The notes beneath the pieces are model-generated. The model did not search any database. It was not told the origin of the DNA and worked only from the letters and a program-made list of their open reading frames with translations. Position numbers and translations under genes: made by a program. DNA of 63,997 bases, counting the filler, from Stramenopiles sp. TOSAG23-3 (taxonomy: Eukaryota): the NCBI GenBank assembly GCA_900128585.1. It is 20 parts of 20 records of this genome, joined end to end, with 100 filler letters (N's around TTAATTAATTAA, not from the genome) between each part and the next. Parts side by side here need not be neighbours in the genome. Positions count along the whole stretch, not along the records: positions 32,213 to 35,327 come from LT644411.1; 19 more parts are not named here. One strand, written 5' to 3'. Within the stretch, counting starts at the first letter, position 1. Each line of letters opens with the position of its first letter. Positions 25,681 through 35,881 of the stretch are shown piece by piece.

Positions 25681-25849
25681 ATNNNNNNNNNNNNNNNNNN
25701 NNNNNNNNNNNNNNNNNNNNNNNNNNTTAATTAATTAANNNNNNNNNNNNNNNNNNNNNNNNNNNNNNNNNNNNNNNNNNNNTATAATACGAGCGAGAGG
25801 AACACACCTAAACGAGGAAACACATTTTAAATATTTTTAATTATTATGA

Positions 25850-28800
25850 TAACAGTCGTTCGTGTAGTTTCGATCAGGCGTTGTAATTGTTGCAATTGCT
25901 TTTTGTTGTAATTCTGAAGAGCATTAGCTTCACCGTCTTCAATGTCCTTAAATGCTTGAAATACTTCCCTTACGTAGTAAATTGCATTAATAAGGAGGGA
26001 GATTTGGGCCGGATCTTTGGGTTCCTCGTCGGCAGCTTTGTCCAACAACCATGTAATTCGCTCTTGTGTGGGGTAACGCTCCAAACTCTTTTTCATGGTT
26101 CCAGTCATTGTAGCTTTCATTTGGTCCAATAGCGTTTGCAAGTAGATTTCTGGCTTTCCCTCTAGCTTCACAGGAGACGCAAAGCGCGTGGTTTCTTTTC
26201 CAACATCGGCGACCCAGCGAACGGCAGATGGCCGTGAATTGTCGGATGGCATATCTTTTGGGTCCAATTCAAATGTTTTGGTTGCCAAGAATACTGCGGT
26301 GGTGTGTTTCATGATCTTGTGCGGTTGCGAGCCATTACTTAGCAAATCGAGCAACTGTGCCTCCGACACAAAGTAAAATCGAGGGAAGATACGTTGTTTT
26401 CCAGACAGGAAATCCTTCAAGGACTTTTTGCACAGGCTCAATCGTTCGTTGATATCTTCCAGCTTCTTGAACCGGCCCTCAACCACACAAGTTTCCTTAA
26501 CATTTCCTGTGTTGGTCGCATCTTTCAAAATAACTTTTAAGTCCTGGTCTACACCAACGAAGCGTTTTGCATCTTCAGGCAATTCCTTTTTTACTTCATC
26601 CGAGCCCACAAAAAGTGGTTCAAGATACGACCAAGTGCCTTGAATCTCTCCTAAAAGAGTGAAAATATCTGCAATATTATTCAATGCACTGTTCCAACTA
26701 TGGATCTGATCTTCAAACGTCATCATGTATCGGTTCCCGAGCATACTTTGAACCGTCAGTTGATCCGCTTCAAGTTGCTCAAAATCTTCGTCAAGCATTT
26801 TCAAGAGCTTCACCTCTTCTGCACTGGCTCCATGGGTCGTGAAAGTATCAAACTCCCAGTCCACCGACGACCATTGATTTTCAAGATTTGCAATGTTCAC
26901 TTCCATTTTCTCTTCTTTTTGTGACTGATCCGTGATTTCGTCAACTTGTTCACCGTATTCGTGCAAATTCAGTTCCAGAAGGCCACCAAGTTTCAATTCT
27001 GGATCTTGGTACGGAGGCGTGAATTCCTTTCCTGTTGCTTTCATAAGTAACGCCCAGTGACGGGGTCGCATACTTTGATGGTGCAGCGCAACTATCAGAG
27101 GGCACGTTGCCAAGAAGTCTTTTACCGATTTCTCCGTCTCTAAGTAAACATTACTGAACTTAATTGACCGGTTTGTCTTTTTAACACTTTTCATGAATTC
27201 TTTTGCAGTCTCTTCCATAACGTTGGCGTCAATCGATGCCCATAGTGCTTCATGGGTTTCTGCGAAATACTTCAGGCATTTCTCGGTGATGTTCCAAAGG
27301 TTTCGGGCCCATCCCAACATATCGTCAATGTTTTGCAAGAGTTGTTTTGCCTTTTCCATTACTTCTGGGAATTCGAACATGGTTGCAATATGCAACATTT
27401 TTTCGTACTTCACTCGTTTAGTAGCCTGGATCGTCTTAGCATCATCCAGCATTTGTTTGGCTTGTTTTGGACTTGTTGTAAACGACCAGAACCGGTTTTG
27501 TTTGAACTCCTTCAAGTAGGTTTCTAAATCCGACGTAAAATTGGCCGTATCGATTTTTGTTCGCGCACCGTGGCGTTTAATGTGTGGAACAATTTGGACC
27601 TTGGTGGCCGGCAACTGTTTCAAGCATGAATCTAGTTTGTTAGTGCAGTCTTTCACAGTGGCTATCATTTGGGCTGGTTTATTCCCTCCCATGTTTTCAC
27701 GAACTAAATGCTCAAGCATAGCTGCAATCCTGTCGGTTTGAATCTTGTTTGAATCTTGCTTCACTTGAACAGCGTGCAGCCTTTCCATAACGGACAGCAG
27801 AGAATCGACGTCATCTTCTGGGACTTTGTTTCGCAGGGCGGACAAGGTTTTCTGCGCAAAAGCAAGAAGTTTACCCAACTCCGCTTCAACGGCATCAATG
27901 ACCATGCTGCCGTCAAATTTGTTCTGCGAGTCTGTAGTTTTGCTTTGATACGACACATTAACGGGAGATCCGGCGATATGGCCGGCTTCGCCTTCAAAGG
28001 TGCCTTCGAACACGCACGATATTTTGTAGGATCCTGTGTCCCCTACTTCAAACGTCGCTTTGTAAAGCCCATTACTAATGTATTCCATTTCAGGCTCGAT
28101 TTCTCGACCTCCTGAATGGGCGACCGTAATGGTAAATTCATCTCCCTCGCTTACGCGGTTGTTCCCCCCGGCATCTCGAGATTGCACGTAAAACTCCGTT
28201 TGGAGTTCCGCAGCCGTGCCAGAAATGAGTGCAGGACCGTACATAATGCACTGGTTACAGTTTGCCACGGAGAAAAACCCGTACGTCTGAAATGTAGTTG
28301 TGAGTGCATTGCCATTCAACGCAACTCGCACGATAACGTCGCCAGGGCCTAAACTGGAAAAGTTCGGCGTCATGCACACAAGGGTGTTCTCGTCAACAAA
28401 ATCTGCGCTTGCTTCCAAGAAATGTTTTCCACGGGTGAAGCGCACGGTAATTTGGCTCGTGCTGACAAAATCAATCCCGATAATTTTCAGTCGGGCGCCG
28501 CCAGTGATTGGACCATTTGCTGGCTCGAGACCCATAATCGCGTAAGGTGGGCCGACGATATTGCTGACATCGACAGTGTGAATGTCCTGAAACCATTCGT
28601 TTGACCACCCGCCGAAGCACAAAAGCCTGCTGTTCTTTGAATCGTATACCATTTCAGTGTCCGCCCTCGGAGCAGGAAGCTCTCCAACAATGTCCGGCTT
28701 CTGCACGGCCATGCTTCCACAATCTAATACGATGAGATCGTTGGAATAAGACGAGCGGGTGTTTCGATCGTTGACGAGGCCCGTGGACCCACCGAACACA

Positions 28801-28895
28801 AACAGCCTCCAGTTAGGGATTGCCGCGACTGCAACTGCCGAGTGGCACCATCGCGACACGCCAAGGTCTACCTCGGTTTGGGACCATGTCCACTG
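25850..28895 (-). CDS. Partial axonemal dynein heavy chain with kelch, IPT/TIG and filamin-like N-terminus (outer-arm alpha type)
   Basis: Kelch repeats (LFVFGG, LLCFGGW), GPITGG TIG motif, filamin-like HIAGSP, then DHC_N2 motifs MRPRHW, WSYLEPLFVGS and KQRIFPRFYFVSEAQLLDLLSNG. Truncated at both ends. Confidence 0.9.
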
Positions 28896-29405: not shown

Positions 29406-30569
29406 CTAGCGCAGGTTATTCCGCAGCCGGGCCTGTACCAAGTCGAACTTCTTCCAAATGTTTTCGCCGAGGGGTTTGCCTGCGTGTTGGCGCCTTGACA
29501 GAAAATTGCAAACGTCCCCCATTTCAGTGGCAAAGCGCTCTTTGACCTTTGCATTTAGCCGCTGCTTAACGATCTGGCCGTATGTTGGCCTTGAACAGCT
29601 GTTGGACGGTCCTTTGCTGTATTTGCCTCTATTTAGTTTTTCCTTTTGCTTCTTGTACTGGTGCTTTTTTGCCGCCTTCCACTCCATTAAATTTATTAAA
29701 TTGCCGCACATGGCGCAAGAGGCAAGGCACTGTTTTTTTGCAAAATTTACGTCCAGCCCACACTTTCGACAAGTGGGTTGCAACGGATCGAACGGGCGCC
29801 TCCACGAGCGCTCGGGCGTATCACCATCCTCTTCGGCAGGCCCCTTTTCCTCCTTCGATGTTGCTGTGGTTTTAATGTACGGGTTTGACCCTCTAAACTG
29901 TTTCTTAAATGCTTCGAACCTTAGAAACGTGTTGCTCTGCTCTGCATGTTCCACCAGCGCTTTGAATTCGTTGAAGACGGCGTCGCTTTGCACGGTCCCG
30001 GACGTGGTAGGTCTACCCCCCCCTTCAATGAGCTGCCCCGCCTTCTTTGCCTTTTCCATGGCGACCTGTTCATCGTGTTCTTCCACTGAAAGCAACAGCG
30101 GAGACGTTGGAGGCATGGCCATGGGCGTTATCGGGCGAAGGAAGGAATTGTTATTTTTCCCTGGGGAGGCCCTCCGCGATTTCTTTTTCAAATTTTTTTC
30201 TTTTTGCCGGGCTTTCTTCTTTGCGGGCATTTGCTTCGCTTTTTTCCCTCTTTTCTTTTGCCTATCCTCTCGAGCCTTTGCTCGCCGTTCTAATTCCTGG
30301 AGCGAGAAATATTTCCCGATGGCCTTTTTCTTCTCACTGTCCGTGAGAGTCATCCATAGAAATGGCGCATTCTCCTCTGGTTCTTCTAACGGCATCACCG
30401 GCTGGCGGAGAGTCATCAAATGGTTGTTTTTCTTCGCATTTAATTCTTGCTGCCGTTTCTTCCGCTGTTTTCTTTCTCTCGTGCTTGTCCGGATAATGCG
30501 CTCGTTTCTAATCTTCAAGACTTGGTCAGTCAATGACTCGCTGCCAAATTCTAGTTTATGCATTGCCAT
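29406..30569 (-). CDS. Basic coiled-coil protein with a CxxC-x14-CxxC putative zinc finger
   Basis: 387-aa K/R/E-rich ORF containing CRKC...CAMC. The opposite-strand ORF has the F/S/L-rich composition of a shadow. Confidence 0.65.
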   Translation of the reverse strand: MAMHKLEFGSESLTDQVLKIRNERIIRTSTRERKQRKKRQQELNAKKNNHLMTLRQPVMPLEEPEENAPFLWMTLTDSEKKKAIGKYFSLQELERRAKAREDRQKKRGKKAKQMPAKKKARQKEKNLKKKSRRASPGKNNNSFLRPITPMAMPPTSPLLLSVEEHDEQVAMEKAKKAGQLIEGGGRPTTSGTVQSDAVFNEFKALVEHAEQSNTFLRFEAFKKQFRGSNPYIKTTATSKEEKGPAEEDGDTPERSWRRPFDPLQPTCRKCGLDVNFAKKQCLASCAMCGNLINLMEWKAAKKHQYKKQKEKLNRGKYSKGPSNSCSRPTYGQIVKQRLNAKVKERFATEMGDVCNFLSRRQHAGKPLGENIWKKFDLVQARLRNNLR

Positions 30570-31101
30570 CTTCCTGCGTTTCTTTCTTACCGTGTCTCGT
30601 TCGGCTGTGTCGTTGAAGTAGAACTAAAACTCAAAGGTGGCCAAGATTGTTTTACAATACTTTTACAACGATTTGAAACGCATGTATATTATCAAGGTTG
30701 GTCTTTTTGCATTTTATAATCTTCACGTAACGAATGGTTCAATGTTCAATATATTTTACCAAAGAGCAAAGATCGATCATCTGTTATATTTTGCTTTCGC
30801 GATACATTATATAATTTTAATAAAATAAATAAAAAATGATGATGAGATAATAATAATAATAATTTTCTTCTTCAACAATAAATATATATAATAATAAATG
30901 TATTATTATTTGTTGCTGTTTCTTCTTGATATTTTATAATAAAAAACGGACATTTTGTCATTTATTTATTATCAAAAACTAAATGACAAAATTATGTATT
31001 CTAATTTTCCTATCAAAAATAATACGACTAACTACAGGAAATTTGAAATTTGACATTCACCACCCACCACCAACATGCGAAAACTTCTTCCCTCACTCAT
31101 A

Positions 31102-32112
31102 TCACAAAGCACCAGCGAGGATCCTCTTTCGCAGAGTCTCCATTATTTTATGGGTGTGATGAATATTGTGAATCGATATTAACGTTGCAACGACCGGTTC
31201 GTGCATCTTCAGCAAGTGGTGCATGTATGCTTTCGAGTGGTTTCTACAGGCATAGCAGTCGCAGTTGGAATCCAAGGGGTCGGGAGATTCTGCGTGTTTG
31301 CCAGACTTCAAGTGGAGCCGCTCGGAAGATCCGTCCGATCTTATGTTAACGAACGCCGTGCCATGCCGGGCCGCTTTCGTCGGAAAACAGCTGTCAAAGG
31401 AGTCCACCCCTTTCTGGGTACCCATTCGTAGCATTCCTTGATCTGCCAAGCCAAGTAAATGGACCGGCTTTTCAGAGGGCAAATGGGGCATCACCCAATC
31501 CAAAACGTTCGCTGCATCTTCTACGGAGCGACCCAAAGACCCCCCCACTGCGAAGCCATCAAACGGCAGTTCGCTCAAAAATGCGGAGGAGTACTTTCGA
31601 AGGGATTGGTCTAGTGCCCCATGAACGACAGCATACATTGCTTGTTCTTTGGGATGCTTCAAATGTTCCTCCAAGGACCGCTTCTCCCAACGCATCGACT
31701 TTTCCACACTCTTTTTCAGTTCCTCGCGGTCAATTTCGGCGCCGGACGGTGGGAGCTCATCCAGTGGTATAATAATGTCCGCCCCGATGAGCTTTTGTGC
31801 TTGGACAGTTGACTCGGGAGTCAATTCGATTTTTTTCCCGTCCCGGTACGATCGGAATGTTACCCCATCTTCTGAAATTTTTAATATCAATCCCTTCCGT
31901 TTTGTATTTCTGGACTTTAATTCACCGGTGACTTTCCCACCGGCTAGGGAAAACACCTGAAAACCGCCCGAGTCTGTGATGAAAGGCTTGTTTCTTCCAC
32001 TCCATTTATGAATGCCACCAAGCTTGTGAATCGTCTCGGGGCCTGGGTGGACCATGAGATGGTACGTGTTTGAAAACATAAGCTCCGTTCCCGCAGCCTC
32101 GCTTTGGTCGTG
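31102..32112 (-). CDS. tgt: 5'-partial queuine tRNA-ribosyltransferase, Chlamydia-like signature
   Basis: NTYHL, TDSGGFQVFSL, LTPES, PLDELP, GGSLG, HLLG, DSFDS and zinc site CDCYAC...HN. Confidence 0.92.
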   Translation of the reverse strand, partial: HDQSEAAGTELMFSNTYHLMVHPGPETIHKLGGIHKWSGRNKPFITDSGGFQVFSLAGGKVTGELKSRNTKRKGLILKISEDGVTFRSYRDGKKIELTPESTVQAQKLIGADIIIPLDELPPSGAEIDREELKKSVEKSMRWEKRSLEEHLKHPKEQAMYAVVHGALDQSLRKYSSAFLSELPFDGFAVGGSLGRSVEDAANVLDWVMPHLPSEKPVHLLGLADQGMLRMGTQKGVDSFDSCFPTKAARHGTAFVNIRSDGSSERLHLKSGKHAESPDPLDSNCDCYACRNHSKAYMHHLLKMHEPVVATLISIHNIHHTHKIMETLRKRILAGAL

Positions 32113-32344
32113 NNNNNNNNNNNNNNNNNNNNNNNNNNNNNNNNNNNNNNNNNNNNTTAATTAATTAANNNNNNNNNNNNNNNNNNNNNNNNNNNNNNNN
32201 NNNNNNNNNNNNTTGTTGTTGTTGTTCTTTTTGTATTCTATTTTGTTCTTTTTCCGAATTTACTCACTTTAGTGTTCCGAACTTGTACTCAACTGAGAAT
32301 GAAACAAGAAAAGTGTGAGGTCGGCCATCTCGTACGAAAAACCA

Positions 32345-35005
32345 ATGCACGATTCAGACGAGAGGATGAATATTGTTGTTGCACGGACCAGCGTCCCAAT
32401 ATGTTCGCACTGTCGCCGTTCCTCTATTGAACAGTTCTCCAGGTCGCAACGGAAACGATGGCGGCAAAACAAGCCTGCGGTCTGTACGCAGTGCCAACAG
32501 ATGGGGCCAGCGAAGGAAACAAAAACATCTGGTAGGGAACGTCAGTTCACACCAGATGCAATGTGCGTTTGTGTGCCTCAGCCTTATGCTTCACTCATCG
32601 TATCTGGGTTCTACCGTTGTATTCCCACGCGTAGTGCGGAACTGAAGGGGTACAGGGGAACACTGTGGATTGCCAGCAAGGAAAAGCACTCCCGCACCGA
32701 CCTTCTTACGGAGTTGAAATCAATTGAAGTTTTTTGTGATCGGGATGTTAACGTGGCAAACAAGGCAAAACTGTTAAACCACGCGAATCGTTCCTGTTTA
32801 TTGGGGTCCGTAGAGGTGGACGAAGGGGCGTTGAACCCAGTTGAAGAATTTAAAGGCTACTGCCTTGCCGAATACGAAAAGTGCAATCGGTTCGCAATTA
32901 GGTTCCGGGATGCGAAACGACTCGTCCTTCCGCTTCCTATGGATATGTCGGGCGCCAAGTCTGCTATTATCGTGTTACGAAAGAAAATGCTTGACTCGGC
33001 TCGGATGCAGTCGCCTACTCCGTCGCCACCAGTCATGCAGCCTTTGGAATCGTTAAGTTCGCGCTTCGACAGCACAATAAGCGAGCAACCAAATAGCGAC
33101 GAAAGCAAAATCTCCCCAAGCAGGCCAAGGCAGCCAGCGGAGAGTTTCTACGAACGGAACGCATATTCACTATGCGAAGAGAGTTCCGTTCCCCAAGACA
33201 GTGTCACGATAGTTTGGTTTCGCCAGGATCTACGGATACAGGATAACCCTGCGTTGTACAATGCCGCAAAAACTGGGTCAAGGTTAGTCTTTGTGTACAT
33301 CCATCCCAAAGACAGCGAAGAAGGCGGCTGGCCAATGGGCGAGGCAGCAAGAGTGTGGACGAAGCACGCCCTTATGAACTTGTCGCGTTCGCTGTTCTCT
33401 CTTTACAATAGCCCGCTGCTCATGGCCAACGCCGCGTCGTTTGAGAATGGTACGGCCGGGGCACTGCAGCGCTTGGTCAGCAGCGTCGGTGCAGGGGCGA
33501 TATTTTACAACAGAGTGTACGAGCCATGGAAGTGCGCCCAAGACAAAGAGATTCAGAGATATTTTGAATGCTTCGGAGTTAAAATGGTATCGTTCAAAGG
33601 CGTGGTAATTTATGAACCGTGGGAGGCCCGATGCGACGAGAAAGATGCTGCCATGAGATTAGGCTTTGGAAGTGTAGGTTTCTTTCTTAGAGCATGCCAA
33701 AATATTGAAATCGATTCAATCCCGCTGCGAGAGCCAATGCACGCGAATGGGTACCAGTTCAGAAAGGGGAATGTCCCGCAATATTTTTGCTTTGATGCAG
33801 ACGATCTGAATCTGTACTCACTCCCAAAGAGGCACGCTTGTGAGAAGGACAAACGGTGGGGGAGAAAGTCTTGTAAGTTTTGTGCTGTCAAATACGGAAT
33901 CGTTTCCGACTCCCTTTGTCCCCACGGTCGATCGGGCCCTATTGATTGGACGATCAACATGACAGAATTTTGGGACATGTCCGAACATGGCGGCCAACGA
34001 GCCTTGGCCGAGTTTATGGACAATGGTATTACGGAATTTGAAACACGCGAGAAGCACCGGGGCGATAAGAAAGGAACATCTCTGCTAAGCCCCTACGTTC
34101 GCTTTGGCCAACTGTCGGCGCGCCAAATTTTGTATGAAGTGAAAGCCAAGTATGGCAACGCGGCATCCCGTTCCTATCTGAGAAAGTTTGCATGGCGGGA
34201 CCTGAGCTACTGGTTTTTATGGCGTTTCCCGAACGTATGCGACGTCAGTTTTAGACCGCATTACGAAAAGCAGTCCTGGACATACGACGAAAAACTACTT
34301 CGAAAGTGGCAGGAAGGGAAAACGGGGTTCCCGCTCGTAGACGCTGCAATGCGGCAATTGTGGTGCGTCGGTTACATGCCAAACTACCTTAGGCATGTCG
34401 TTGCAGGGTTTCTGATTGAATATTTGAACATGGATTGGAAGCATGGGTTCAAGTGGTTTCACGACACGCTTGTCGACGCAGACGTAGCCATCCAGGCGTA
34501 CATGTGGCAAAACGGTGGGGGGTGCGGCACCGATTCGTGGAATTTTGTAATGCACCCTGTGAATGCCGCAAAAGCGACGGACCCAGAGGGAGACTATGTG
34601 CGGAAGTGGGTCCCGGAGCTGAGGCATCTGCCTGCCGGGCTCATCCATTGCCCGTGGGAGGCCGACTTGGGGACCCTTTGTGCCGCGAACGTGCGGCTAG
34701 GAGGAACGTATACACGTCGCGTTGTAAAGGACTTGGAGCGCGCGCACCGAAAAAACTTCAACGCGGTCATGAACATTCGGGATGGAATTGGGAAGAAATA
34801 CATCCTGCCCTCTGGCCACGAGGGCATTGTTTTGGATAATGGAAAAGTTGCTGTCTGCATCACACGAGTTGATTACAGAGAAAAAGAAATCTGCACGTTC
34901 CAAACCCCTGAAGAGAAATGGGATAAACGAAAACGGTTGGCGAATGGTGATATTCGAGGCCATGTCTTGCGCCAAGAGATTATGAACCATGAGAAACGCT
35001 GCTGA
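32345..35005 (+). CDS. Cryptochrome/photolyase (plant-like CRY type) fused to an N-terminal Cys4 zinc finger and ASCH domain
   Basis: IVWFRQDLRIQDNPAL, TSLLSPYVRFGQLS, WQEGKTGFPLVDAAMRQLW, LVDAD, DPEGDYVRKWVPEL. N-terminus has CSHC...FSRSQ...CTQC and QPYASLIVSG...YRGTLWIAS...CLLGSVEV. Start ATG 32345 (or 32366). Confidence 0.9.
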   Translation: MHDSDERMNIVVARTSVPICSHCRRSSIEQFSRSQRKRWRQNKPAVCTQCQQMGPAKETKTSGRERQFTPDAMCVCVPQPYASLIVSGFYRCIPTRSAELKGYRGTLWIASKEKHSRTDLLTELKSIEVFCDRDVNVANKAKLLNHANRSCLLGSVEVDEGALNPVEEFKGYCLAEYEKCNRFAIRFRDAKRLVLPLPMDMSGAKSAIIVLRKKMLDSARMQSPTPSPPVMQPLESLSSRFDSTISEQPNSDESKISPSRPRQPAESFYERNAYSLCEESSVPQDSVTIVWFRQDLRIQDNPALYNAAKTGSRLVFVYIHPKDSEEGGWPMGEAARVWTKHALMNLSRSLFSLYNSPLLMANAASFENGTAGALQRLVSSVGAGAIFYNRVYEPWKCAQDKEIQRYFECFGVKMVSFKGVVIYEPWEARCDEKDAAMRLGFGSVGFFLRACQNIEIDSIPLREPMHANGYQFRKGNVPQYFCFDADDLNLYSLPKRHACEKDKRWGRKSCKFCAVKYGIVSDSLCPHGRSGPIDWTINMTEFWDMSEHGGQRALAEFMDNGITEFETREKHRGDKKGTSLLSPYVRFGQLSARQILYEVKAKYGNAASRSYLRKFAWRDLSYWFLWRFPNVCDVSFRPHYEKQSWTYDEKLLRKWQEGKTGFPLVDAAMRQLWCVGYMPNYLRHVVAGFLIEYLNMDWKHGFKWFHDTLVDADVAIQAYMWQNGGGCGTDSWNFVMHPVNAAKATDPEGDYVRKWVPELRHLPAGLIHCPWEADLGTLCAANVRLGGTYTRRVVKDLERAHRKNFNAVMNIRDGIGKKYILPSGHEGIVLDNGKVAVCITRVDYREKEICTFQTPEEKWDKRKRLANGDIRGHVLRQEIMNHEKRC

Positions 35006-35427
35006 ATCTATTATTTTCACTGTTGCTATTTACTTCTCTATCTATATTAATATTAAAAGCATGTTCAACATTCTTCAGAATTACCTTTCTGTATATATTA
35101 TGGTTAAAATACAATATATAGGAATAGCACTGAAAATCACATTTTTTTAATTTAATTATTATTATTTTGATGAGATGACCACCTCTCCTCTCTCAGTCTC
35201 TCTCAGTCTTCTCGGCTCAGCAGAGGTATTAATAGCTACCATAATAGCAAAAAAAAAAAAGAAGAAGAAGATAAAAATGAATTGCATTTTTTGATGCGGC
35301 GTGTTTTTTTTTTACAGAGTGCATGCANNNNNNNNNNNNNNNNNNNNNNNNNNNNNNNNNNNNNNNNNNNNTTAATTAATTAANNNNNNNNNNNNNNNNN
35401 NNNNNNNNNNNNNNNNNNNNNNNNNNN

Positions 35428-35429
35428 GA

Positions 35430-35500
<71 letters not shown>
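35428..35500. repeat. (GAAA)n microsatellite at contig start
   Basis: Perfect GAAA run of about 18 units. Confidence 0.95.
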
Positions 35501-35501
<1 letters not shown>

Positions 35502-35881
35502 AGAGATTTACTTTTTGGAGAGGAGGAAGTAAGAAAATATACTTTACAATACTGTTTACCTGTATGTATATGTTTTTACTGCGTGATGCAGCAAGCAGTA
35601 TCATATAACAAAAAGAGAGGAGGAACGAAGGTGGTGAGTGTGTGCGCAGAAGAAAAAAGAAAGGAAGGAAGGAAAATAATAATAAAAAAGAAGAGGAACG
35701 GAAAGAAGGAAATCGATAAGCTAATGACTAGTTTCATGTTTCCTCCTTTTCACGTACAGTAAGATGCATTCTGTTGCATTAATTATAGTACGCAGCGCAC
35801 ATAATTCGGATTCAGATAACCTCTTTTCCAAATTTAAAACAACCCATCCAACTGCAGTCTTATTTTTGTCAGTTTAGTACC

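Follow-up and report, generated by a model that had tools for sequence, protein, structure and literature searches.

Within the window, by which we mean the whole 63,997-nucleotide stretch of assembly GCA_900128585.1 (Stramenopiles sp. TOSAG23-3) that was analysed, one gene encodes a cryptochrome-like protein that carries on its N-terminal side a zinc finger and an ASCH domain of the type found in ASC-1/TRIP4. The gene, which lies on contig LT644411.1, represents a conserved fusion family present in marine metatranscriptome libraries. Both halves are familiar, a photosensory family and a fold that binds nucleic acid, but their conserved combination is undescribed. As a rule cryptochromes signal by way of protein partners; one with a PUA-like nucleic-acid-binding domain of its own would connect light to DNA or RNA within a single protein.

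An earlier note on this DNA, made by reading the sequence alone, had described one uninterrupted open reading frame (ORF) at 32345..35005 containing a Cys4 finger at about 32402-32494, an ASC-1/TRIP4-like ASCH segment at about 32558-33010 with a degenerate octapeptide, a proline- and serine-rich linker, and then a full photolyase-homology region (PHR). Every one of these parts was recovered (Table 1). ORF listing and translation give a single frame of 886 codons from ATG 32345 to the stop at 35003-35005, with no interruption, and the finger falls exactly where it had been placed. The order of the four parts is Cys4 finger (amino acids 20-50), ASCH domain (72-222), predicted disordered linker, and complete PHR with a conserved C-terminal tail. 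The longest frame listed at the gene opens at GTG 32315, and an alternative start, M8 (ATG 32366), marks the position where the N-termini of orthologs begin in the ortholog alignment.

Reality, age and probable expression of the fusion

The whole architecture is common to four further proteins, P0003 (886 aa), P0004 (892 aa), P0006 and P0176, the first three of which show 40-46% identity to the window protein over the N-terminal module and 58-71% over the PHR. A further fused set, more distant than these, came out of an hmmsearch of the fetched proteins: P0034, P0173 and P0175 (E-values 1e-21 to 1e-23); PHR identity to the window protein is 48% both for P0034 and for P0005, the representative of the cluster that includes P0173 and P0175. 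The L004 ortholog is one uninterrupted, intron-free frame of 914 codons, and the window copy is likewise intron-free. The L003 ortholog has a 104-nt GT-AG intron at 2699-2802, inside the FAD-binding domain (FAD, flavin adenine dinucleotide), and its removal restores the LVDAD motif; an intron of this kind indicates a spliceosomal, nuclear gene family. Viral origin was considered and discarded: pattern and tblastn searches of IMG/VR viral contigs returned no relative of the fusion protein, and ESM-Atlas matches of the N-terminus to phage ASCH clusters, all below 0.9, are leads only.

Two checks proposed in the earlier note, a phylogeny of the cryptochrome/photolyase family (CPF) and read or transcript support across 33010-33200, both came out in favour of the fusion. 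For the first, a quick maximum-likelihood tree was built from 51 chosen of 126 proteins plus E. coli Phr, leaving out P0002, the truncated P0006 and most metazoan rows. The six ASCH-labelled rows and P0005 form one clade with two deep subclades (Shimodaira-Hasegawa-like approximate likelihood ratio test, SH-aLRT, 99). P0005, a short gene model, falls into one 90% cluster with the ASCH-bearing P0175, and all seven rows of the clade belong to fused forms. Comparison of these sequences shows a fusion of single, old origin, together with a CxxC...CxH insert in the PHR that is described below.

For the second, words sampled from the fusion contig occur in 20 runs from 12 studies among the runs listed, 17 of them with at least half of the sampled words; six of the 20 listed runs are RNA libraries, and two may be the source of this DNA. 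Among the assembled contigs of four marine metatranscriptome runs, one of 2432 nt follows 32364-34795 collinearly and unbroken, and two more RNA-library contigs, from other runs, span the linker (33067-33414 and 33105-33338), so that contigs from three runs cross it without joint or gap. Cover by RNA contigs is absent from 32213-32316 and past about 35040, and gives no evidence for transcript ends there. Support for a single transcript, and for expression of the fusion, is good but not conclusive.

An artefact, whether chimeric assembly, a mis-joined contig or two adjacent genes read through, is very improbable: the contig is short (3115 bp), the assembly is fragmented into many small pieces, and public gene models of the protein differ in their starts (834, 814 and 886 aa), but the same architecture recurs in independent sequences that share 40-46% N-terminal and 48-71% PHR identity and form one clade, L004 carries it in a single ORF, RNA-library contigs cross the linker cleanly, and the contig is found across many runs and studies. 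A single mis-assembly behind all ortholog contigs is excluded by their sequence divergence. The gene model P0002, for the same protein, starts at M53 and thus misses the finger.

The ASCH domain and its degenerate octapeptide

Assignment of residues 72-222 to ASCH rests on profile and fold, because Pfam's own ASCH model (PF04266) has no match in the window protein at E<=10, nor any in 57 scanned PHR relatives at E<=0.001; residues 1-280 have no match to any Pfam model, even at E<=10. Because the ASCH model does not score it, the fusion is invisible to architecture catalogues based on Pfam. As a single sequence, residues 71-160 matched human ASC-1/TRIP4 ASCH weakly among PDB sequences (E 0.003-0.005). 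A control profile of five fused sequences alone matched TRIP4 ASCH in solved structures at E=4e-9, and a profile of nine N-terminal modules, stand-alone relatives included, matched TRIP4 ASCH chains over the whole domain at E=4e-33 and EOLA1-type proteins at E 0.002. Against a set of 5.8 billion proteins, the N-terminal profile found vertebrate ASC-1 at about 1e-35, ranked below the stand-alone finger-ASCH proteins P0178-P0183.

Modelled structure points the same way. An AlphaFold model of residues 1-240 (predicted local distance difference test, pLDDT, 75.9) was compared with solved structures by Foldseek, and ranks 1-8 were all TRIP4/ASC-1 ASCH (best E 1e-9; template-modelling score on target 0.69-0.81), among them complexes of TRIP4 with double-stranded DNA (dsDNA) and the ASCC3-ASC1 cryo-EM complex 8alz. 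These were followed by the EOLA1-type structures 6kir and 5y7d, ZmASCH and TTHA0113. In the structural alignment the fused ASCH is 23-25% identical to TRIP4. Profile search and structure prediction, both of which the earlier note had named as checks on these residues, thus return TRIP4 ASCH, and together they confirm the domain as ASCH of ASC-1/TRIP4 type.

The octapeptide reads G-x-K-R-x-E-G-R in TRIP4 and in eight of nine stand-alone relatives; the ninth, P0138, has neither the motif nor the finger. Both K and E are lost in all eight fused forms, the K having become Y (or S/A). Sequences of the window's subclade have GFYR.(I/L)P, and those of the other subclade have GISRVINM or GIARVLNM, followed by an insertion. 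According to the available text of a preprint (bioRxiv 10.64898/2026.02.27.708502), the octapeptide Lys and Glu are needed for removal of N4-acetylcytidine (ac4C) by TRIP4-ASCH and EOLA1. Since fused forms have lost both, the fused ASCH is most simply taken as a binding module, not an enzyme. The family offers a natural case of an ASCH domain losing its proposed catalytic residues on fusion, and so bears on what ASC-1-type ASCH domains do.

An exhaustive phmmer search with residues 1-280 against 1.84 billion representative proteins gave 11 matches, consisting of fused orthologs, fragments, and the stand-alone proteins P0139 and P0140 of about 235 aa. These two pass the Pfam ASCH cut-off of 21.2 (26.2 and 38.5 bits) and carry a Stc1-type half finger. 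The stand-alone finger-ASCH family, from marine metagenomes, includes P0139, P0140, P0160 and P0178-P0183, at about 225-280 aa; motifs resembling the ubiquitin-interacting motif (UIM) are seen at the C-termini of P0182 and P0183. Stand-alone and fused forms share the two-domain module, its order, and the finger helix QFS(R/K)(S/A)Q(R/K)K(R/K), but the stand-alone forms keep GxKRxEGR, score 26-38 bits against the Pfam ASCH cut-off, and lack a PHR. The stand-alone family is probably the donor of the fused module.

The finger

The finger pattern, C20-x2-C23 ... QFSRSQRKRW ... C47-x2-C50, is kept in fused and stand-alone relatives in the alignments. The earlier note had likened it to Stc1-type fingers, but the window protein itself has no match to Pfam Stc1 (PF12898; cut-off 24.8 bits). 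Relatives score 16.1-24.9 bits with that model, over positions ~47-83 of 84 only, which is one of its two fingers, and the nine-sequence N-terminal profile matches the Stc1 structure 2luy at E 0.019. The resemblance appears borderline, at family level only. The Pfam scan found no zf-C2HC5 (PF06221) match in the window protein.

Table 1. Positions, along the window, of the fusion gene, its contig and its parts
Feature	Position	Strand	Evidence and remarks
Contig of the gene	32213..35327	.	3115 bp; N44-TTAATTAATTAA-N44 linkers on both sides
Coding sequence, 886 aa, stop codon included	32345..35005	+	ORF reading; metatranscriptome contig collinear 32364-34795
Cys4 zinc finger C20, C23, C47, C50, basic QFSRSQRKRW helix; Stc1-like at family level	32402..32494	+	Conservation; family Stc1 matches; model pLDDT 72-89
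ASC-1/TRIP4-type ASCH, PUA-like fold, aa 72-222	32558..33010	+	PDB sequence/profile matches; model and Foldseek
Degenerate ASCH octapeptide GFYRCIPTR (canonical G-x-K-x-x-E-x-R)	32606..32632	+	Alignment; Lys and Glu both lost
Proline/serine-rich linker, aa 223-285, predicted disordered	33011..33199	+	pLDDT <50 over aa 217-282; poorly conserved; bridged by RNA-library contigs
Photolyase alpha/beta (antenna-binding) domain, Pfam DNA_photolyase, aa 288-435	33206..33649	+	98 bits; pLDDT about 90
C510-x2-C513-x11-C525-x-H527 in inter-domain connector insertion, candidate extra zinc site	33872..33925	+	Alignment and pattern
FAD-binding helical domain, Pfam FAD_binding_7, aa 612-805	34178..34759	+	213 bits; W721/W698/W645, D711/D713, R683, Gln717
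Conserved C-terminal tail, aa 806-886	34760..35002	+	ILPSGHE ... ITRVDYRE ... QT.EEKWDK block, common to PHR subfamily

The photolyase-homology region and its subfamily

The PHR scores well above the cut-offs of the two Pfam models that define the CPF: 98 bits for PF00875 (cut-off 26.6) and 213 bits for PF03441 (cut-off 27). Among solved structures it comes nearest to Arabidopsis CRY2, the class III photolyase PhrA, and CRY1, at E 1e-67 to 1e-72. The top-scoring NCBIfam model, plant cryptochrome TIGR02766, gives 278.7 bits and falls below its cut-off of 603.85, as do the photolyase models PRK10674 (195 vs 506) and the 8-hydroxy-5-deazaflavin (8-HDF) type (170 vs 885). Residues were mapped to E. 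coli Phr through BLASTP and HMMER alignments and a 123-row MAFFT alignment (Table 2); residue numbers and roles are those of E. coli photolyase, and the numbering was checked against the translated phr of L001 (offset 1).

Table 2. Functional residues of E. coli photolyase and their counterparts in the window protein and its relatives
E. coli residue	Role	Window protein	Fused clade	Other rows
W382/W359/W306	Trp triad	W721/W698/W645	W 7/7, 8/8, 8/8	W 114, 114, 113 of 114
N341	FAD contact	N680	8/8	114/114
R344	FAD contact	R683	8/8	114/114
D372, D374	FAD contact	D711, D713	7/7	114/114
T234, S235	FAD contact	T578, S579 (aligned)		
W277	Lesion stacking	W617	8/8	113/114
E274	Lesion pocket	K614	K/R 8/8	K/R 112/114
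R342	Lesion pocket	Y681	Y 8/8	Y 114/114
M345	Lesion pocket	H684	H 8/8	H 113/114
W384	Lesion pocket	N723	N 7/7	N 107/114
N378	Next to flavin N5	Q717	Q 4, N 3	N 66, D 40, Q 8

Among the five pocket residues of cyclobutane pyrimidine dimer (CPD) photolyase, E274, W277, R342, M345 and W384, only W277 is kept. Gln717 of the window protein aligns with D393 of CRY2, and thus replaces the Asp of plant cryptochromes next to flavin N5. Judging from the alignment, the PHR belongs to a CPF subfamily that is coherent and whose pocket is not that of a photolyase, and the variation of the flavin-N5 neighbour among Asn, Asp and Gln within one subfamily suggests differing photochemistry among close relatives.

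The CxxC-x11-CxH motif occurs in all eight fused-clade rows, five of them aligned and three by pattern (P0005, P0034 and P0175, the last two read directly), and the aligned columns lack it in every other row of the subfamily. The pattern is found somewhere in the protein in 10 other rows, nine of which carry RING fingers. Possibly the insert is an extra metal site that arose with the fusion. The AlphaFold model of the full-length protein, built on 12 sequences only (mean pLDDT 64.8), is too weak for inter-domain geometry, and a complex prediction of the PHR (aa 281-886, with FAD) with the finger-ASCH module (aa 15-232), which scored 0.00 against a mark of 0.34 with alignments unused, is uninformative on docking.

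Named relatives of the PHR come from cryptophyte (Guillardia), haptophyte (Emiliania) and chlorarachniophyte (Lotharella) algae, fishes and molluscs. A Pfam scan (E<=0.001) of 57 mostly protist members of the subfamily, of about 122 fetched, detected both PHR domains in all 57 and RING fingers in about 10. A ZNF598 PAH domain was detected in one (P0022, 33 bits vs cut-off 25; P0019 is weaker at 18.5 bits) and a weak UBA domain in one (P0013); UIM-like motifs were found in P0007 and P0009 with a regular expression of our own. P0019, P0022, P0048 and P0013 are among the relatives noted for RING, PAH or UBA N-termini. Members with RING, PAH, UBA or UIM-like features may, from these domain matches, be light-linked ubiquitin-system proteins, and for RING-PHR and PAH_ZNF598-PHR cryptochromes no description was found in the literature searched. 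As its domain architectures indicate, this little-studied subfamily, probably one of plant-like cryptochromes, is built as a modular scaffold on whose N-terminal side targeting or effector modules can be exchanged (ASCH, RING, UBA and ZNF598-PAH), of which ASCH is one.

Proposed function

We infer the function of the fusion protein as follows, and give the proposal about an even chance of being right: the protein would be a cryptochrome of the plant-like kind, held on nucleic acid by a finger-ASCH module without catalytic activity. Encoded in the nucleus of a flagellated marine eukaryote, it would act as a flavin photoreceptor of the plant-like cryptochrome branch, and the finger and catalytically dead ASCH would permanently tether or target it to nucleic acid. 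Blue or UV-A light would reduce the flavin by way of the Trp triad. The PHR and its conserved C-terminal tail would change in consequence, which would alter either finger-ASCH binding or recruitment by the PHR, and in turn transcription, or RNA or DNA processing, at the bound site would change. TRIP4 ASCH has been solved with dsDNA (PDB 8yfj, 8yfi, 9kyl), and binding of single-stranded DNA (ssDNA) by TRIP4 depends, according to the available text of PMC10076317, on a C-terminal region that includes ASCH; the same may therefore hold for the fused domain. Light-switchable binding, if true, would make the protein a possible compact optogenetic part.

Several observations weigh against this proposal. 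In the literature text available, function within the subfamily is known for a single diatom protein only, and that protein is grouped with the fusion by description. Next to flavin N5 the window protein has Gln, and the rest of the subfamily Asn, Asp or Gln, while the equivalent of the lesion-stacking W277 is retained. Because the fused ASCH is so divergent from TRIP4, in identity and in its failure to match Pfam ASCH at E<=10, its binding properties may differ. RNA libraries, moreover, can contain DNA, so that expression is supported, not proven.

The first alternative is targeted repair: driven by light, the PHR would directly reverse a UV lesion, for example in ssDNA or RNA, and the finger-ASCH module would bring it to that substrate, a role like that of the ASCC complex for the direct-reversal enzyme ALKBH3. 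FAD contacts and Trp triad are complete, the counterpart of the lesion-stacking W277 is kept (W617), a true class III CPD photolyase (4u63, E 2.9e-71) is among the close solved relatives, and PUA-like ASCH, YTH and EVE domains, seen among fold matches, recognise flipped or modified bases. His684 appears to occupy the place of the catalytic His of (6-4) photolyases, although the (6-4) motif has two His residues and presumably just a single one of them would be found here. Throughout the subfamily, however, E274 is replaced by K/R, R342 by Y, M345 by H and W384 by N; the NCBIfam photolyase models stay far under their cut-offs; and the table of a review, in the part available (PMC8591175), gives no repair activity for the one studied member. 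We consider repair unlikely.

A second alternative, slightly less probable again, makes the protein a light-regulated adaptor of ASCC3-type helicases or of ribosome-collision quality control, in which ASCH would dock on an ASCC3/RQT-like helicase, like the ASCH of TRIP4, and the light sensor would be brought to stalled ribosomes or damaged templates. The ASCH domain is specifically of ASC-1/TRIP4 type, and the ASCC3-ASC1 complex is among its fold matches. In ribosome quality control the ASC-1 complex works downstream of ZNF598, and some sister PHR lineages carry ZNF598-PAH (P0022) and RING fingers; UIM-like motifs are found both in the stand-alone P0182 and P0183 and in the PHR relatives P0007 and P0009. 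PAH_ZNF598, on the other hand, passes the threshold in just one scanned relative, the finger here is of a different type, without a zf-C2HC5 match, and TRIP4 docks stably on ASCC3 through its C2HC5 finger, not through ASCH, according to the available text of PMC10076317.

A broader version would have the protein as a light-powered or light-gated nucleic-acid quality-control factor, with a photolyase-like head acting on UV-damaged RNA or ssDNA, with an ASC-1-type module, once an enzyme and now a reader, to take it there, and with a wider, as yet unrecognised link of the subfamily to ubiquitin and ribosome-collision machinery. That link is proposed because of the ZNF598-PAH, RING, UBA or UIM-like features at the N-termini of sister lineages; the idea as a whole is speculative, and we hold it to be decidedly improbable.

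Other features of the window

The window consists of 20 pieces of 2944-3128 bp, in order of descending length, with N44-TTAATTAATTAA-N44 spacers between them (for example 32113-32212 and 35328-35427); by piece, GC content across 1-63997 ranges from 0.365 to 0.567. Because the pieces are unrelated contigs joined together, ORFs beside the fusion gene are not its genomic neighbours, and genomic neighbourhood was discarded as evidence. On its own 3115-bp contig the gene stands alone between AT-rich flanks; a poly-T/TTG-rich tract (32213-32260) opens this contig, and a (GAAA)n microsatellite (35428-35503) begins the piece that follows. Elsewhere in the window lie genes for part of a dynein heavy chain, with Kelch, TIG and Filamin repeats (25827-28859, minus strand), and for a queuine tRNA-ribosyltransferase (31102-32079, minus strand), and these two genes are consistent with an assembly from a flagellated eukaryote. 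At 29406-30621, two 387-aa ORFs overlap almost completely on opposite strands, with no inverted repeat or palindrome at the pair. The minus-strand ORF is rich in Lys, Glu and Arg and has no Pfam match; the plus-strand ORF looks like its antisense shadow.

Comparison with known systems

The earlier note knew of no described cryptochrome with such an N-terminus, and our literature searches agree. No ASCH-cryptochrome or ASCH-photolyase fusion was found in the literature searched, although supplementary material (for example, the CPF trees of PMC8017926) may already show the clade; the available text of algal-photoreceptor reviews and of a metatranscriptome study makes no mention of one.

The nearest described photoreceptor is CryP of Phaeodactylum tricornutum. 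The review cited above, in the part available (PMC8591175), gives plant-like CryP a regulatory role in a diatom and has it bind FAD and methenyltetrahydrofolate (MTHF), with relatives in algae and metazoans and a tail of about 70 aa. The likeness drawn from that description lies in a PHR nearest to plant CRY and class III photolyase, a full Trp triad, a conserved tail (~80 aa here), and relatives in algae, fishes and molluscs. As described there, CryP has no finger-ASCH N-terminus, and the fused clade differs further in its CxxC...CxH insert and, in the window's subclade, in Gln for Asn at flavin N5. The PHR appears to fit the 'plant-like cryptochrome' group, a comparison made by taxon spread and tail.

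TRIP4/ASC-1 is the counterpart for the N-terminal module. Its ASCH domain (8yew, 8yfj, 9kyk, 2e5o; 8alz) is the best profile and fold match, with the same PUA-like beta-barrel and the shared motifs QP(W/Y)ASL and CLLG(C/S)V. The TRIP4 octapeptide, however, is GIKRVEGR against GFYRCIPTR in the fusion; ASCH is C-terminal in TRIP4 and N-terminal here; and the finger is C2HC5 in the former and Cys4, Stc1-like, in the latter. None of the TRIP4 Pfam domains PF23134, PF06221 and PF23135 is found in the window protein, which does not qualify as a TRIP4/ASC-1 ortholog.

In overall design the fusion resembles dualchrome, a phytochrome-CRY fusion according to the available part of PMC8591175, and the RING-PHR and PAH_ZNF598-PHR proteins, since in each of these marine-protist proteins a CPF photosensory core is combined with an effector or targeting module of another kind. 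What differs is the module that was added: in dualchrome it is a second photosensor, in the RING and PAH forms a ubiquitin-system domain, and in the fusion reported here a PUA-like nucleic-acid-binding domain.

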